Assembly (NCBI GenBank): GCA_964640155.1
Contig: CAZXEQ010000006.1
Location: forward strand, 39,013-71,012
Direction: 5' to 3'
DNA from: an uncultured bacterium
Lineage (GTDB): Bacteria; Auribacterota; JACPWU01
DNA length: 32,000 nt
Shown here: positions 954-32,000 of the stretch, piece by piece
How the letters are laid out: each line of letters opens with the position of its first letter
How positions within the stretch are numbered: the stretch's first letter is position 1
Notes under the pieces: generated by a model
Told to the model about the DNA's origin: nothing
The model's database searches: none
Seen by the model: the letters and a program-made list of their open reading frames with translations, nothing else
Position numbers and translations under genes: made by a program

Positions 954-960
954 TCCAAAA

Positions 961-1082
961 AACCTCTCAAAAAGGTCCCAGGTGCAAGGCGCTTGCAAGC
1001 GACCGCGGAGGTGTACGTTTGATGGTACACCGCACAAGGGAGCGCAGTAAGGAACGTAGCAGATGGGCCTTTTTCAGAGGTT
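961..1082. repeat. GC-rich palindromic element R1, copy 1 (122 bp) with imperfect terminal inverted repeats
   Basis: Ends are AACCTCTCAAAAAGGTCCCA ... TGGGCCTTTTTCAGAGGTT. It is near-identical to 18519-18667. It fills the gap between convergent genes and abuts the pepA stop codon (1083-1085). It is visibly more GC-rich than the flanks. Confidence 0.85.
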
Positions 1083-2558
1083 TTACTTTTTCAAATCGCG
1101 AATCATTCTGGTTAGCAGTCGAACCCCAATCCCCGTTGCCCCTTTCACACAATAAGGTCTCTTCTCATCAGCCCAGGCTGTCCCAGCAATATCGAGATGG
1201 GCCCATGGAAAATTGACAAATTGCTTTAAGAACATGGCTGCGGTAATTGTTCCAGCTCCGCGAGAACCTACATTTTTAATTTCTCCCACATCGCCTTTAA
1301 TTTGATCAAAATATTCATCCCATAAAGGAAGCTGCCACGCACGTTCACCAGAATTTTCTCCCGCCTCCTTAATGAGATTAATCACTTTGTCATCATTTCC
1401 CATTAAACCAATCGCAAGTTGGCCTAGAGCAACGACACAAGCCCCGGTCAAAGTGGCCAAATCTACAACCATTTTAGGTTTATAGCGTTGGGCGTAAAAA
1501 AGACCATCCCCCAATAAAAGCCTTCCTTCCGCATCGGTATTTAAAACCTCCACGCTTTTTCCAGAACCCATCCAAATGACATCTCCTGGTCGCACCGCTG
1601 TTCCACTTGGCATATTCTCCGCAGCTGGAATAATCCCAACAATATGAGTTTTAAGTCCTAATTTTGCTACTGCACGCAAAATACCTGCCACAGCAGCTCC
1701 TCCAGCCATATCGTATTTCATTTTTTCCATGCCATCACTGGGTTTAATCGAAATACCTCCACTGTCAAAGGTTACACCCTTACCTACAAAAGCAAAATCA
1801 ACAGGAGATTTGGTATTCCCATATTCCAAAACGATGAATCGAGGTTCTTCAGCACTCCCCTGGGAAACGGCAAGAATCCCCCCCATTTTCATTTTTTGAA
1901 GTGCTTTTTTATCAAAAGCCTTAAAAGAAATCCCACATTCTTTGGCCATTTTTGAAATTCGATCGGCCAAAACACGAGGAGGAAGTTCATTCGCAGGACT
2001 ATTTACAAGATCTCTTGCGAAATTGACACTTTCAGCAACAACTTGGCCCATTTCAATAGCCTTTTCAATGCGAGACGAATTCAAATCATGAAAAGAAAGA
2101 AAACAAGTTTTTAATGCTCGTTTTTTAGAAGATGCTGGTTTAAAACAATCATATCGATAAAGGGCCAGATCTATAGTTTCAGTTACTACTTCAGCCAAAC
2201 TCTCTTCAGATACTGCCGTTATACAAAAAGAATCCATCAAAAATTCAACATTTTCAAAACTCTTAGATGTTAAATCCATAATACGCCCCACCGTCTGGCG
2301 TATATTTTCTAGAGAAGGCTCCTTAGGCAAGATTACAACATAAAGAACATTCCCTTTTTCCAGATCAAAACTCATGACATCATTTTTCTTAAATGAAAAT
2401 TTTTTTCGAAAAAGAAATCTTTCAACTCTCTGACGAAGCGAACTATCTAAAAAATCCTTCAAAGAATCTAAGTTTTTTGATTCTTCTCTTAAGCCAACAA
2501 CAAAAGCTTGATTCTCGCCTTTTAAAGTTTTTTCTGTTTTTTTACATAAAATTTGCAT
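1083..2558 (-). CDS. pepA: leucyl aminopeptidase (peptidase M17)
   Basis: 491-aa ORF with the M17 signatures NTDAEGRLLL, VGKGVTFDSGG and KYDMAGGAAV. Confidence 0.95.
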   Translation of the reverse strand: MQILCKKTEKTLKGENQAFVVGLREESKNLDSLKDFLDSSLRQRVERFLFRKKFSFKKNDVMSFDLEKGNVLYVVILPKEPSLENIRQTVGRIMDLTSKSFENVEFLMDSFCITAVSEESLAEVVTETIDLALYRYDCFKPASSKKRALKTCFLSFHDLNSSRIEKAIEMGQVVAESVNFARDLVNSPANELPPRVLADRISKMAKECGISFKAFDKKALQKMKMGGILAVSQGSAEEPRFIVLEYGNTKSPVDFAFVGKGVTFDSGGISIKPSDGMEKMKYDMAGGAAVAGILRAVAKLGLKTHIVGIIPAAENMPSGTAVRPGDVIWMGSGKSVEVLNTDAEGRLLLGDGLFYAQRYKPKMVVDLATLTGACVVALGQLAIGLMGNDDKVINLIKEAGENSGERAWQLPLWDEYFDQIKGDVGEIKNVGSRGAGTITAAMFLKQFVNFPWAHLDIAGTAWADEKRPYCVKGATGIGVRLLTRMIRDLKK

Positions 2559-18518: not shown

Positions 18519-18667
18519 AACCTCTCAAAAAGGTCCCAGACATGTTTTTATAGTCCCCTTTAGGGGATGCAAGGCGCACGCAAGCGACTGCGGAGGCGTA
18601 CGTTTCCTGGTACGCCGCACAAAGAAGCGAAGCGGGCAACACAGCAGATGGGCCTTTTTCAGAGGTT
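18519..18667. repeat. GC-rich palindromic element R1, copy 2 (149 bp), inside the nuoA-nuoB intergenic region
   Basis: Same terminal inverted repeats as 961-1082. Colinear with copy 1 except for a 29-nt segment (18539-18567, replacing GG in copy 1) that carries the hairpin TCCCC-TTTA-GGGGA. It ends 4 nt from the nuoA stop codon. Confidence 0.85.
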
Positions 18668-18671
18668 TCAT

Positions 18672-21370: not shown

Positions 21371-21769
21371 TCAGCACGAATGCAAAGCAATACGATTCCC
21401 TTCGCTATCCAAAACAACGGCTCTAAAACCATAGGGGGCAATAGAATGTTTTTCTTGAAGAATTTTTCCACCATTTGCCTTAGCTGCTTTAATTGCATCA
21501 TCCAGTCTTCCATTTGTATTTAAATAAATTAAAACACCTTGTCCAGAAGGAACGTTTCCCTCAGTTTTTACTAAGCATGCACCTATTCCTTCCCCGGCAT
21601 GAGGAAGAACTCCTATGGCAAAATCAGGCATTTCTTCTTTTATTATTTTTGCTCCAATGACTGCAGAATAAAATCGAATGGCTCGATCTAAATCAACCAC
21701 TGGAATATCACACCAAACAATTTGATTAATAGAGCATTCTTTTTCGGATTTCAATTCAGTGTCTTTCAT
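21371..21769 (-). CDS. VOC (glyoxalase/bleomycin-resistance/dioxygenase) family protein
   Basis: 132 aa. The N-terminal W.DIPV.DLDRAIRFY motif and the overall pattern are typical of small VOC proteins. Confidence 0.8.
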   Translation of the reverse strand: MKDTELKSEKECSINQIVWCDIPVVDLDRAIRFYSAVIGAKIIKEEMPDFAIGVLPHAGEGIGACLVKTEGNVPSGQGVLIYLNTNGRLDDAIKAAKANGGKILQEKHSIAPYGFRAVVLDSEGNRIALHSC

Positions 21770-21814
21770 AAAATTTCTCCTAATTTATTTTTTAAAATTG
21801 ACGGCTAAGATCTA

Positions 21815-22264
21815 TTAGCTGATTTTAGATTTTAATTCGACGATAGCAATAATTTCTTCTTTTCCTAAGACATTCTCATAATGATATTCATCTTTATTAC
21901 GTTCTAATTTCTTTTGAGTTGATAAATCAATTTTTAAGAGAACTAAATAGGAATGTCCTTCTATCAAATACTTAGGAATATGCTTTTTAGCAGAAATTTC
22001 ACTTTCAATTCCAATATAATTACGCGTCATTTTTCCTTTATAAATATTTTCAATCTTAAATCCCTCCAACAAAAACCATGTTCTGCTTCCATCAGGTCTA
22101 AAAATACAGGGGCTTCTTCCTTCAGTATAAGTACCTGAGAAAATGATATTGGCTTGCTTAATTAAATTTCTAGGTGCTTTAGAAATTTCAGCAGGCATTT
22201 GAGAATTAGCAAAAAGAGGATTCACTATAAGCATAAAAAACACAAAAACATATATATTACGCAT
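21815..22264 (-). CDS. small secreted protein, paralog A
   Basis: The tracked ORF (21815-22405) is a chimera. By comparison with paralog B, the likely start is ATG 22264 (MRNIYVFVFFMLIVNPLFA signal peptide). ATG 22279 is an alternative. Confidence 0.65.
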   Translation of the reverse strand: MRNIYVFVFFMLIVNPLFANSQMPAEISKAPRNLIKQANIIFSGTYTEGRSPCIFRPDGSRTWFLLEGFKIENIYKGKMTRNYIGIESEISAKKHIPKYLIEGHSYLVLLKIDLSTQKKLERNKDEYHYENVLGKEEIIAIVELKSKIS

Positions 22265-22294
22265 GATGTTGCCTAACATGAAAAGAGTAAAAAT

Positions 22295-22308
22295 TGGAGG
22301 TGGCGGGA
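22295..22308 (-). repeat. copy 3 of the tmRNA T-loop-to-3'-end 14-mer (att-like)
   Basis: TGGAGGTGGCGGGA on the plus strand, identical to 23218-23231 and 22971-22984. Confidence 0.85.
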
Positions 22309-22405
22309 ATCGAATCGCTCGATCTAAATCAAGCACTGGAATATCACACCAAACAATTTGATTAATAGAGCATTCTTTTTCGGATTTCAATTCAGTGTCT
22401 TTCAT
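22308..22405 (-). pseudogene. duplicated 5' fragment (about 33 codons) of the VOC gene
   Basis: MKDTELKSEKECSINQIVWCDIPVLDLDRAIRF matches the N-terminus of 21371-21769 apart from one residue. The fragment then runs into the tmRNA-derived 14-mer. Confidence 0.85.
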
Positions 22406-22450
22406 AAAATTTCTCCTAATTTATTTTTTAAAATTGACGGCTAAGATCTA

Positions 22451-22903
22451 TTAGCTGATTTTAGATTTTAATTCGACGATAGCAATAATTTCTTCTTTTC
22501 CTAAGACATTCTCATAATGATATTCATCTTTATTACGTTCTAATTTCTTTTGAGTTGATAAATCAATTTTTAAGAGAACTAAATAGGAATGTCCTTCCAC
22601 CAAATACTTAGGAATATGCTTTTTAGCAAAAATTTCACTCTCAATTCCAATATAATTACGCTTTATTTTTCCTTTATAAATATTTTCAACCTTAAATCCC
22701 TTCAACAAAAACCATGCTCTGGTTCCATCAGGTCTAAAAACACAAGGGCTCCTTCCTTCAGTATAAATACCAGAAAAAATAACATTGGCTGACTTTACTA
22801 AATTCTTAGGAAGACTAGAGAATTCAGGAGGTAATTTATCTGAAGCTACAAGAGATTGGAAAATAAACATAAAAAAGATAAAAGCTGATAAAACATTTTT
22901 CAT
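22451..22903 (-). CDS. small secreted protein, paralog B
   Basis: 150 aa with signal peptide MKNVLSAFIFFMFIFQSLVA. The C-terminal 49 residues and the downstream DNA are identical to paralog A. Confidence 0.75.
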   Translation of the reverse strand: MKNVLSAFIFFMFIFQSLVASDKLPPEFSSLPKNLVKSANVIFSGIYTEGRSPCVFRPDGTRAWFLLKGFKVENIYKGKIKRNYIGIESEIFAKKHIPKYLVEGHSYLVLLKIDLSTQKKLERNKDEYHYENVLGKEEIIAIVELKSKIS

Positions 22904-22970
22904 AATTCTATTTTAGGATGCTCTTCATGACTTTTTAAACAGCAGTTCCTTCACATAAAAATAAAAGAAT

Positions 22971-22984
22971 TGGAGGTGGCGGGA
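22971..22984 (-). repeat. copy 2 of the tmRNA T-loop-to-3'-end 14-mer (att-like)
   Basis: TGGAGGTGGCGGGA on the plus strand. Together with the genuine tmRNA 3' end, it bounds element X. Confidence 0.85.
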
Positions 22985-23217
22985 TCGGCGCCTACGTTTC
23001 AGGCTAGCCGCTCTGCGGCATGGCCTCTTCGAGGCCTACGCATCCACTTCGGTCGGCCATTCGATGTTCGCAGCGGTCGTCCATCTACCACCGGTAGATG
23101 GTCATTATATATTCTGACTTCGTCAGATAACTCACGTCTCCCTTCGACTCCTGCACATTTGCAAAGGCCTATATTGTGCTGAAGTTTCTGGACCCTAGAT
23201 TTATCTTGGAATAACAA
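22985..23217 (-). mobile_element. element X: 233-nt GC-rich, hairpin-dense insert immediately 3' of tmRNA (miniature integrative-element remnant or unknown structured RNA)
   Basis: Flanked by 14-nt direct repeats. Hairpins at 23022-23036 (GGCCTC-TTC-GAGGCC), 23081-23101 (CCATCTACC-ACC-GGTAGATGG) and 23114-23126 (CTGAC-TTC-GTCAG). Its composition contrasts with the AT-rich flanks. Confidence 0.45.
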
Positions 23218-23618
23218 TGGAGGTGGCGGGAGTCGAACCCGCGTCCTAGAGTATTTCTTACGAGAGCCTCTACATGCTTAGGCTATTTTTTGGATCTCAT
23301 CCTTTTAGACTCCAACAGTCAGGATTCTAAAAGGACCAGTCGGCATGCGGTCTCCTCGCCATGAATGCGCCCACTCCATTCATGACCAGCCTGTTATGAG
23401 TCGCCTATTCAAGCCTCACAGACATAAGCCTGATAGACGTGGCTGACTAAGCAGCCAATGCCAACGTTCGAGGAGCGAACGAACCAATGTTCAACTTCTC
23501 AAACGGGATTACTTTCCCTGTATTGGCAAATAAATGTGCCAGGTGTTTTGAGAGGCCTCCTAGCAACCTCTGCATGCCACCCTCGTGTCCACACCCCAGT
23601 CGAATCCATTTCACCCCC
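23218..23618 (-). ncRNA. ssrA: tmRNA (SsrA), one-piece, about 401 nt, CCA not encoded
   Basis: The minus strand starts GGGGGTGAAATGGATTCGACTGGGG and ends GGACGCGGGTTCGACTCCCGCCACCTCCA (T-arm plus acceptor). The 5' GGGGGUG pairs with CACCUCC. Tag frame 23527-23447: GCC AAU ... GCA UUG GCU GCU UAG. smpB lies 0.9 kb upstream. Confidence 0.93.
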
Positions 23619-23701: not shown

Positions 23702-24271
23702 TTAAGCTTTTGAAAGCAACCGATTAAAACTTTGAAGAAGTTTATCCCCTCCCACTTCATCAAGTTTTTTTAACCATTCTTGGATATAGGTAACGTCGAT
23801 TTTCTTTTTCTGACGCTGAATAATTCCTTTTAAATCCTCATAATCTTTTGCTCTGGTACTTGCAATCTTGTGAATAATTAAATCTTCAGGACTTATTAAT
23901 TTTATCTTTAAATTATCTATTTTCTTTATTCGACCTCTACGAATTGCAGAAAATTCAAGAGAGTTTTCTGCAATAATAACATCCAGCTTCCCCAAAATAT
24001 TTCCTTTTTGAAACTTCAGGGGAATAACACCCGTTTTTTTTACAATCTTCATCGTTTCTTTAAAAGAAGGAGAAAAACCAAATTTTTTAATCTTCTTTAA
24101 AAAATCTTCTGCCTTTGCTTTATCCAAAACGACGTTAATATCAACGTCTAAAGTCATGCGAGGCTCTCCATAAATTGAAACAGCTATTCCGCCTATAATC
24201 ACATAAGGAATTTTTTCAGAAGAGAGAAATCGAGTAAGAGATTGAATCAAAGATTCAAATTGAAGACTCAT
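23702..24271 (-). CDS. minimal nucleotidyltransferase-fold protein (toxin-antitoxin-like cassette component)
   Basis: 189 aa. NTase signature IIGGIAVSIYGEPRMTLDVDINV (hGG...DxD). ATGA overlap with the upstream 72-aa ORF. Confidence 0.7.
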   Translation of the reverse strand: MSLQFESLIQSLTRFLSSEKIPYVIIGGIAVSIYGEPRMTLDVDINVVLDKAKAEDFLKKIKKFGFSPSFKETMKIVKKTGVIPLKFQKGNILGKLDVIIAENSLEFSAIRRGRIKKIDNLKIKLISPEDLIIHKIASTRAKDYEDLKGIIQRQKKKIDVTYIQEWLKKLDEVGGDKLLQSFNRLLSKA

Positions 24272-24486
24272 TTTATCCTTCCAAATAAAGTGTGAATTTT
24301 AGCCAAATGCTTAATCTTGGCTTCATCAAACTTTCTATTTTTAAAAACCCAGCCTGCACGACTTGCAAAATTATAAAGTTCCTTAAATGCTTTAAAACCA
24401 TCCTTCACAGATAAATTCTTTAAAAACTTGCGTTTCTGTTCATCTTCAAATTGATGATAAATTTCCCATTTTTTCTCTCTTAGCAT
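24268..24486 (-). CDS. small basic protein, partner of the nucleotidyltransferase
   Basis: 72 aa. Starts 1 nt after the smpB stop codon and overlaps the NTase start (ATGA). No motif recognised. Confidence 0.6.
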   Translation of the reverse strand: MLREKKWEIYHQFEDEQKRKFLKNLSVKDGFKAFKELYNFASRAGWVFKNRKFDEAKIKHLAKIHTLFGRIK

Positions 24487-25347: not shown

Positions 25348-25489
25348 AAGCATTTTTTAGTATTTTCAATTAATAAATTCCCCTTTCCCCTTCGCTCTAT
25401 TACGGATAAACTGTAGCAGTAATTTTAAGGGCGCCCCGACGCAAGGTCGGGACGCTCCATTTTCTAACTTCACTTCGTTCAGAGAAAAT

Positions 25490-25571
25490 GGGCGGGTGGT
25501 GGAATCGGCAGACACGTAGGTCTCAGAAGCCTATGGGTAAAACCGTGGGGGTTCAAATCCCCCCTCGCCCA
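25490..25571 (+). tRNA. tRNA-Leu (anticodon CAG), type II, CCA not encoded
   Basis: Acceptor stem GGGCGGG/CTCGCCC (one G-U pair). D-arm GTG-GAATCGGCAGA-CAC. Anticodon arm TAGGT-CTCAGAA-GCCTA. Long variable arm. T-arm GGGGG-TTCAAAT-CCCCC. Discriminator A. Confidence 0.92.
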
Positions 25572-25819
25572 AAAACTGAATTGCAAAATTTTGAGTCAAA
25601 GAAGGTTTTTGCAGAGTAACGCATTCGTAATTTTTTAAAAGGGGGGTTTGAAGGGAGGGCCGACTCAAAATATTGTCAAATCATGCACAGCATGATTTGC
25701 GACTTCTCTAAGGCCCGGGTGGCCGAAGCCGACGTAAAGTCGGCTCCCCGATAATGCATCGGGGCCGGAGGCGTCCAAAGGTTTCCGACATTTGTCGGAA
25801 TAGCCGAATGCGAAGGCGC
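25572..25819 (+). mobile_element. element Y: 248-nt insert immediately 3' of tRNA-Leu, with an AT-rich 5' part and a GC-rich hairpin-dense 3' part
   Basis: Bounded by the tRNA 3' end and the repeat at 25820-25837. Hairpins at 25679-25697, 25728-25744 (GCCGAC-GTAAA-GTCGGC), 25746-25764 (CCCCGAT-AATGC-ATCGGGG) and 25783-25800 (TTCCGAC-ATTT-GTCGGAA). Confidence 0.45.
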
Positions 25820-25837
25820 CAAATCCCCCCTCACCCA
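25820..25837 (+). repeat. second copy of the tRNA-Leu T-loop-to-3'-end 18-mer (att-like)
   Basis: CAAATCCCCCCTCACCCA against CAAATCCCCCCTCGCCCA at 25554-25571 (17 of 18 identical). Confidence 0.85.
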
Positions 25838-25952
25838 TTAAACTAGGGCATAGTGCATAGGGATTAGGGAAAAACTAAATACTATTTTAAGAATAAATTA
25901 GAAATCACAATTTTATAATATAGAAACCTTTAAAACTTAAAACACTTTCAAT

Positions 25953-31932: not shown

Positions 31933-32000
31933 AAAAACTCACTCTCCTAAAATGATAAGATTCCCAACTTATTTCTTAACCAATGAACTATCTGCGGAAA

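Follow-up and report, generated by a model that had tools for sequence, protein, structure and literature searches.

Probable miniature, gene-less insertions at the T-loop ends of a tmRNA gene and a tRNA-Leu gene, with a tandem duplication of neighbouring host DNA

What places three copies of the end of one gene in a row? The question is raised by a 32,000-nucleotide (nt) stretch of DNA from an uncultured bacterium (contig CAZXEQ010000006.1, positions 39,013 to 71,012; hereafter the window), in which the 14-mer TGGAGGTGGCGGGA occurs exactly three times on the plus strand, at 22295-22308, 22971-22984 and 23218-23231. No further site is found in the window even at two mismatches, and the chance level is low (a mean of 0.07 matches per shuffle, with 0 of 100 shuffles reaching three). 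The copy at 23218-23231 (minus strand; copy 1) is the functional end, the last 14 nt, of ssrA, the intact transfer-messenger RNA (tmRNA) gene on the minus strand (23218-23618; ARAGORN; Rfam RF00023, 175.6 bits, full length), whose tag peptide is ANTGKVIPFEKLNIGSFAPRTLALAA. Read in the direction of the gene, the repeat is TCCCGCCACCTCCA, the reverse complement of TGGAGGTGGCGGGA; aligned to the Rfam model, it runs from the final base of the T-loop through the 3' strands of the T-stem (CCCGC) and of the acceptor (CACCTCC) to the discriminator A. Copies 1 and 2 are separated by 233 nt (22985-23217), copies 2 and 3 by 662 nt (22309-22970).

Repeats of a tRNA or tmRNA tail are usually read as the scars of integrase-bearing islands, and the units here are far smaller than any described island. 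Among the window's open reading frames (ORFs) of at least 90 aa, Pfam matches include NADH dehydrogenase subunits, SmpB, a UDG-family protein, a glutaredoxin and an EVE-domain protein, and none to an integrase, transposase or excisionase family. A sequence-only reading of this DNA had placed the 14-mer at the same three positions, had assigned it to the segment from the last T-loop nucleotide through the discriminator and had seen no recombinase ORF in the window, and our results agree with it on each of these points. Our analysis points to two processes: it is probable, at somewhat better than even strength, that the first interval and two similar inserts (E1 to E3) are miniature, non-autonomous site-specific insertions with a T-loop crossover, whose recombinase is encoded elsewhere or has been lost, and that a tandem duplication with a T-loop breakpoint accompanies them at this locus.

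The interval between copies 1 and 2 is a gene-less insertion of 247 bp (233 nt plus one repeat), which we call E1. In the direction of ssrA, the tmRNA discriminator is directly followed by a 63-nt spacer of 36% GC (23155-23217, minus strand) and then by the sequence GCAGGAGTCGAA (23143-23154, minus strand; inverted repeat I1), which at 11 of its 12 bases matches the reverse complement of the ssrA T-loop and T-stem 3' strand (TTCGACTCCCGC). This inverted T copy stands 63 nt from the gene end (shuffle p ~0.002). Next comes a core of 158 nt, delimited by composition and folds (22985-23142, minus strand; 56% GC, perfect short hairpins), which starts with GGGAG and ends in TAGCCTGAAACGTAGGCGCC-GA. 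The insert is closed by copy 2 (22971-22984, minus strand), a displaced ssrA 3' end which, from the 14-mer match and the comparison of flanks, is probably the ancestral one. The T-rich flank ATTCTTTTATTTTTATG that follows resembles the ssrA flanks of relatives (GAATTTATTTTTATC in locus L151, TTTTTATTTTC in L155), a resemblance of low complexity only. Searches with E1 returned no Rfam family and no phage homologue; outside the repeat it resembles neither the local tmRNA nor any of 42 others. Neither E1 nor its sister element E2, described below, has a homologue in plasmids, and a coding remnant was rejected as their identity, since the ORFs inside both lack a Pfam match even at E = 5. The GC-rich cores may be cargo, nested palindromic elements or parts with a function.

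Two further candidate identities for E1 were set aside. An origin from a tmRNA, be it a decayed or foreign fragment or a permuted form, was rejected on the lack of tmRNA similarity and on permuted-tmRNA scores far below threshold. A T-loop group I intron, of the kind that one clostridial tmRNA contains, was rejected as well: no splice register combines a normal T-loop with a U preceding the 5' splice site and a G preceding the 3' one, and Intron_gpI gave no match.

If E1 is an insertion, relatives should show the site without it. The nearest SmpB proteins are 66-82% identical to that of the window, and two of them are named by their sources as Chlamydiae/Chlamydiota metagenome assemblies; a scan of species-representative genomes for smpB gave no close relative (best 63% identity among the matches listed). 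We assign the window to an environmental chlamydia (Chlamydiota). The relatives' contigs keep the order SDR gene, tRNA-Leu, ferredoxin, smpB, ssrA. In six lineages (L150, L151, L154, L155/L156, L158 and L182) an AT-rich flank directly follows ssrA, whose end is not repeated there, and E1 is absent from all the related ssrA loci fetched. The genes beyond ssrA differ in every lineage, which marks this side of the gene as a variable region. The sequence-only reading had suggested a nested or decayed integration hot spot, or a set of non-autonomous elements flanked by attachment (att) sites and mobilised in trans, and had proposed a search for empty sites in relatives. The six lineages provide such sites, and our results support a site-specific insertion hot spot at the ssrA 3' end and a 233-nt interval that behaves like an att-flanked insert without a recombinase.

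A sister element, absent from that reading, lies 2 kb from ssrA behind the intact tRNA-Leu(CAG) gene (25490-25571, plus strand; ARAGORN; Rfam tRNA 54.6 bits). This element, E2 (25572-25820, plus strand), was recognised by the same layout and motifs as E1: a 69-nt spacer of 28% GC, an inverted copy of the tRNA-Leu T-loop and T-stem (GGGGGGTTTGAA, 25641-25652), a 168-nt core of 56% GC that starts with GGGAG and ends in TAGCCGAATGCGAAGGCGCC, and an aligned direct copy of the tRNA-Leu T-loop-to-3' end (AAATCCCCCCTCACCCA, 25821-25837, plus strand; 17 nt, one mismatch). E1 and E2 further have in common GAAGGGAG, located 72 and 77 nt into the insert, and TAGCC-N8-AGGCGCC, which abuts the direct copy in both. 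The combined motif pattern is present at two places in the window, E1 and E2, and at none in shuffled sequence. The tRNA-Leu gene is an empty site in L150, L151 and L163. The window sequence after the E2 copy is homologous to the flank directly 3' of tRNA-Leu in L150 and L163, including its TAGGG/TAGTG repeats, and E2 is thus an insertion bounded by a repeat. Clusters of such short repeats, for example TAGGGCATAGTGCATAGGGATTAGGG, form the native tRNA-Leu flank in the clade (window 25838-25870; L150, L154, L163). We also considered, and rejected, a CAST (CRISPR-associated transposon) homing spacer or a TnpB guide remnant. Such a remnant would have its guide copy at the distal end and the host flank tens of bp past the target gene; here the native flank starts again right behind the repeat copy, at the point that corresponds to the gene end in L150 and L163, and transposition genes are missing.

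The tRNA-Leu site also varies between close strains. L155 and L156, which encode an identical SmpB protein, differ downstream of tRNA-Leu. Remnants are visible in L156 (...TAGGCGCC/AAGTCTCCCCTCGCCCA and, further on, GGGGGACTTGA/GGGGAG) and in L154 (...AGGCGTC/AACCCCCCGTGCC). The L156 region (reverse complement, ~1-340) holds two tRNA-Leu 3' fragments of foreign type, an inverted T copy with GGGGAG and then MNT/HEPN genes; in the matching region of L155 only remnants of MNT/HEPN are left, beside a degenerate fragment and a palindromic element of 130 nt.

The third insert, E3, is found at ssrA in a more distant lineage (L160-L162, SmpB 66%). It consists of a 62-nt AT-rich spacer with three ATTGCRRA repeats, the inverted copy GGGAGTCGAA, ~100 nt of GC-rich hairpins and GACTCCCACCACCTCCACCA, followed by an L155-like flank. 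The direct copy of the ssrA end measures 17-20 nt. This displaced copy bears CCA and the flank TTTTTATGAG, which resembles the L155 ssrA flank, whereas the intact gene has no CCA, a difference that fits an element supplying a new 3' end. ATTGC begins at the ninth spacer base in both E2 and E3.

Taken together, E1 to E3 present one layout: intact gene, AT-rich spacer of 62-69 nt, inverted copy of T-loop and T-stem, GC-rich hairpin core, and direct copy of the T-loop-to-3' end, within ~195-266 bp and without a gene. The inverted T copy is offset by 63 nt in E1, 68 nt in E2 and 64 nt in E3 (shuffle p 0.002-0.004 each). As a control, 102 tRNA/tmRNA genes (the loci fetched by then) were inspected for the combination of direct and inverted copies, which appeared only in the window and in L160-L162. 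What we observe directly is the anatomy of the inserts, the polarity of insertion, the empty sites of relatives and the fact that the architecture recurs. When viral contigs were scanned for T-loops with an inverse copy behind them, a fourth example came up outside the clade (L281, a contig of a viral collection; reverse complement, 83-345), of ~185 bp at tRNA-Arg(CCG). There, the tRNA gene precedes a spacer of 44 nt that contains a terminator hairpin, an inverted T-arm copy of 17 nt, ~105 nt and a direct copy of the last 17 nt of tRNA-Arg with one mismatch. Separately, L196 (3349-3500) and ~16 other IMG/VR loci (L184-L277) carry an inverted T-loop-to-CCA copy (~24 nt) beyond the bidirectional terminator of tRNA-His. 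These were rejected as instances of the same layout, since the arrangement is different and no convincing direct copy lies downstream; L196 is without an integrase.

Could the three inserts be what random deletion has left of integrase-bearing islands or prophages, each decayed independently? Direct repeats of a t(m)RNA 3' end and empty sites would fit any integrative element, the cores are unrelated in sequence, and the regions beyond ssrA and tRNA-Leu vary per lineage and hold toxin-antitoxin-like modules (HEPN/MNT in L156). Against this, random deletion would not be expected to leave the same module order, a spacer of 62-69 nt and the same offset of the inverted T copy in three inserts at two genes, nor to retain both GAAGGGAG and AGGCGCC at positions that correspond between E1 and E2. 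Three independent inserts with one module order argue against random decay of larger islands; as neither an autonomous parent nor a recombinase was found, we keep this explanation as a minority possibility.

The structure of the cores raises another explanation, in which the GC-rich segments are functional structured RNAs, such as tRNA-like or trailer-encoded ones, whose 3' part mimics a t(m)RNA end for processing or CCA addition, the repeats being RNA features. The cores are indeed hairpin-rich and 56% GC in a genome of 31-37% GC, like tmRNA itself; a long-range helix can form between the inverted T copy and the 3' copy, as it does in the minimum-free-energy fold of E2, and E1 and E3 have weak matches to tmRNA_permuted (E = 0.55 and 0.57). 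Those matches, however, score 20.0 and 16.1 bits against a gathering threshold of 47, a GA-cis match scores 16.9 against 34.7, and no Rfam family is reached at threshold. RNAalifold returns no consensus structure (-10 kcal/mol, covariation term -0.22). Both strands of E1 fold about equally well (z = -2.2 and -2.5), its stems being perfect short palindromes with almost no G-U/G-T pairs, and no promoter-like site is present in its spacer. Moreover, the primary sequence is unconserved and the segments are absent from most relatives. Considering all this, a functional RNA is very unlikely.

The interval between copies 2 and 3 is of a different nature. On the minus strand the order is ssrA, 233 nt, copy 2, ORF-B, VOC', copy 3, ORF-A and the complete VOC gene. 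ORF-B (22451-22903, minus strand; 150 aa, called as an ORF) has an N-terminal signal-peptide-like segment and is a paralogue of ORF-A (21815-22264, minus strand; 149 aa, also an ORF call, with its own ATG at 22264), with 79% aa identity. VOC' (22309-22405, minus strand; 97 nt, 32 codons plus one base) is, by alignment of the units, a duplicated 5' fragment of the glyoxalase/VOC-family gene, of which the complete version lies at 21371-21769 (minus strand; 132 aa, Pfam PF00903, E = 8.5e-10). The unit from copy 2 to VOC' and the unit from copy 3 into VOC, 676 and 637 nt long, are colinear throughout. Since the two units align end to end, the interval is one unit of a host tandem duplication, not foreign cargo. 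The sequence-only reading had taken these ~0.66 kb as att-flanked cargo, a view that gives way here to duplicated host DNA, consisting of an ORF and codons 1-32 of VOC.

The duplication joint itself is informative. VOC' ends in ...GAGCGATTCGAT and is fused to copy 3 (22295-22308, minus strand), so that VOC codon 32 is joined to the T-loop, as expected of a tandem duplication. From the junction contexts (VOC TTCGATT / CCCGCCACCTCCA), the joint reads GAGCGATTCGAT/TCCCGCCACCTCCA, against GAGCCATTCGATTTTATTC in the intact VOC gene and GCGGGTTCGACTCCCGCC in ssrA. The pseudo-site used lies in VOC codons 31-33 (ATTCGATTT). Judged from these sequences, the exchange took place at TTCGAYT, a T-loop sequence (TTCGACT/CCCGCC in ssrA, TTCGATT in VOC), and its breakpoint region, T-loop positions 59-61, is common with the insertions. 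Over their last 300 nt the two units agree at 98.7% (4 differences; 21672-21971 against 22308-22607, repeat family D1), and over the first halves at ~86% with 52 gap columns; this mosaic may reflect gene conversion or recombination with a diverged allele. The annotated ORF of 196 aa (21815-22405, minus strand), listed in a public protein collection as P0002, is a fusion artefact of the junction, composed of 32 VOC' codons, the tmRNA-tail repeat read as PPPP, and ORF-A. Annotators should be warned that a protein called across copy 3 arises from the duplication junction. ORF-B belongs to an orphan family (3 homologues among 5.8 billion proteins) with no Pfam family, and its AlphaFold model (pLDDT 51) is too poor for a structure search.

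With this joint in hand, one may ask whether a site-specific enzyme is needed at all: all three repeats could be errors of replication or repair, that is, microhomology-driven tandem duplication and template switching at the palindromic T-arm. The copy-3 junction does lie at a microhomology of 6/7 (TTCGAYT), and template switching at palindromes can yield a sense/antisense/sense order. Such errors would not bring in the 158-168 nt of GC-rich DNA, unlike local sequence, that separate the repeats of E1 and E2. Nor would they explain why the T-loop boundary recurs at two genes and in other lineages, or why in E3 the displaced copy has CCA and the intact end none. Repair errors as a full account are therefore quite unlikely.

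A more trivial possibility is that the assembly merged two co-existing strains into a false tandem. The source is a metagenome-assembled genome, and a contig assembled independently for this organism (Logan, run SRR8893623; L001), which matches window positions 32000 to 22568 at 100% identity, ends within the 99% repeat. This contig reproduces copy 1, the 233 nt and copy 2, hence E1; because of where it ends, the copy-3 junction is seen in the window assembly only. On the other hand, the junction of VOC' and copy 3 shares just 5-6 nt, far below the word size of assemblers, and VOC' differs from VOC at two positions. An artefact is thus extremely unlikely.

T-loop site-specific recombination is best supported by the combination of direct end repeats, an intact gene, native flank after the copy, empty sites and strain differences. 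Mechanistically, the 3' ends of ssrA and tRNA-Leu(CAG) would act as site-specific insertion hot spots in the clade. In a first event, E1 would insert with a crossover in the T-loop, around positions 56-60, supplying a new T-loop-to-3' end that keeps ssrA intact, while the old end (copy 2) would be pushed downstream together with the old flank. As the elements encode nothing, their insertion must have been catalysed in trans, by a recombinase that would be encoded elsewhere in the genome or since lost; we infer that this trans-acting enzyme was most likely a tyrosine integrase of the T-loop class. In a second event, the host duplication of 0.64-0.68 kb would arise by exchange between the ssrA T-loop and TTCGATT of VOC, creating copy 3, either through the same recombinase on a secondary site or through microhomology-mediated unequal exchange. 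Mobility of E1, if it exists, would give the excised junction ssrA + ATTCTTTT and the circle junction ...AGGCGCCGA-TCCCGCCACCTCCA-TTGTTATT. Should the elements move, they would constitute the integrative-element counterpart of miniature inverted-repeat transposable elements (MITEs), minimal att-only parasites of a recombinase.

Several observations weigh against site-specific insertion by an enzyme acting in trans. Neither the window nor the related loci fetched contain a recombinase, and 12 related loci and several pattern scans gave no autonomous element with matching ends. In these scans, the junction 20-mer had one chance match in viral contigs, inside a coding region; the E-motif pattern had 0 matches in viral contigs and 65 in metagenome contigs, none beside a tRNA gene in the E layout; and the ssrA end combined with ATTGCRRA had 18 matches, all away from tmRNA genes. 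Between the cores of E1, E2 and E3 there is no significant sequence similarity, so that the 'family' rests on architecture and short motifs, and the examples are three or four only. Flanks and remnants also bring complications. The first 12 nt after the window ssrA share TTATTCCAA with the ssrA flank of L150, possibly by chance. In L154 (reverse complement, 83-180) the native TAGTG flank adjoins tRNA-Leu and AGGCGTC with the fragment lies 84 nt beyond, an order outside the predictions of a simple insertion model. The L156 fragment has the acceptor of other lineages, CTCGCCC, instead of its own CGTCCCC. Finally, the copy-3 junction comes from a single assembly, and an inverted T copy is not known to play a role in classical attP sites.

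How do the inserts compare with known systems? Integrative elements of the T-loop sublocation class at tRNA/tmRNA genes are the nearest broad group. The closest described case is the ssrA islands of Dehalococcoides, which are inserted in mid-T-loop, carry a conserved motif just upstream of the repeat and occur in tandem, 15 of them without an integration module (PMC3146451). The E elements most closely resemble these integrase-less (cis-mobilizable) islands, at a far smaller size. Both have an element-side motif adjoining the repeat (TTCAGRSMGMRKCCA there, TAGCC-N8-AGGCGCC in E1/E2), several repeats downstream of one ssrA and some units without an integration module. In contrast, the Dehalococcoides islands are kilobases long, bear genes and usually include an integration module, whereas the E elements measure 195-266 bp, are gene-less and contain the target T-arm in inverted form; a cognate integrase was not found. 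Compared with integrative elements in general, a repeat-bounded insert is seen in E1 (copies 1 and 2), E2 (17 nt, one mismatch) and E3 (17-20 nt), and an empty site with native flank at ssrA in six lineages and at tRNA-Leu in L150, L151 and L163; an integrase inside the element, beside att, is missing, the inserts being gene-less. Cis-mobilizable elements (CIMEs) of the ICESt1/ICESt3 type share with them the attL/attR-like flanks, the lack of recombination and transfer genes and a proposed enzyme in trans, but are kilobase-sized and stand beside, or derive from, an autonomous element with the same att; the loci and scans covered here gave no such parent.

Smaller elements offer partial likenesses. 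In MITEs and Rickettsia palindromic elements (RPEs) we find the same small, gene-less, hairpin-rich DNA, GC-richer than the genome. The arms of the E elements, however, vary with the target, and their repeat is a copy of 14-17 nt of a gene end, not a short target-site duplication; the constant terminal inverted repeats plus short target-site duplication that define a MITE are not present in E1 to E3. Integron cassettes with their folded attC sites may be comparable in their order of sense core, short content, inverse core, hairpin-prone variable stretch and sense core, and the E2 stem has an extrahelical base (T60), which may likewise resemble attC. GTTCAAA and GTTCGAC, however, do not fit the attC core GTTRRRY, neither an integron integrase nor attI is present, and the repeat boundary lies at T-loop position 56-60, not at G/TT.

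Integron attC sites and the attP of CTX phage are folded single-strand sites that mimic double-stranded att. By analogy, E1, E2, E3 and L281 could belong to an undescribed class of gene-less mobile DNA of ~200-270 bp, directed at the T-arm of tRNA and tmRNA genes, in which each member carries a sense and an antisense copy of its target and a single strand of DNA (or RNA) could fold into a mimic of the T-arm att. A host or trans-acting recombinase would insert such an element, and its target would be retuned by changing both copies. We consider this class unlikely. The inverted copy may have a role of its own; if the elements do move, its match to the target would offer a simple and testable hint about the recognition and retargeting of T-loop sites.

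The neighbourhood of these genes offers some further observations. Between smpB and ssrA, the window carries on the minus strand (23702-24486) a 72-aa ORF and a DUF2204/DUF6036 (AbiEii-like) nucleotidyltransferase gene. The window shares this pair with the L155-L157 lineage, not with L150, L151 and L154, and the pair looks like a toxin-antitoxin-like module gained or lost at the locus. In L158 (603-1574), an rve-family (IS3/IS481-type) transposase gene stands upstream of smpB, in the place taken elsewhere by ferredoxin and tRNA-Leu, and in L163 (1257-1338) tRNA-Leu(CAG) with its flank is inverted relative to ferredoxin/smpB with respect to all other lineages. The assembly GCA_016196915.1 holds two smpB-ssrA loci, L156 and L161, whose SmpB proteins are 73% and 66% identical to that of the window; the bin is probably a mix of two chlamydial genomes. 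Within the window, a GC-rich hairpin (25418-25460; CCCGAC-GCAAG-GTCGGG and a T-run) lies 3' of the ferredoxin gene; it is probably the ferredoxin intrinsic terminator and accounts for the GC peak upstream of tRNA-Leu. Finally, the window contains a MITE-like or RPE-like family of two intergenic, GC-rich copies of ~125-130 nt, at 955-1085 (plus strand) and, in the opposite orientation between nuoB and nuoA, at 18535-18668. They have the terminal inverted repeats AAACCTCTSAAAAAGGYCCCA...TGGGCCTTTTTCAGAGGTTT and are strongly similar to each other (local alignment z = 47).

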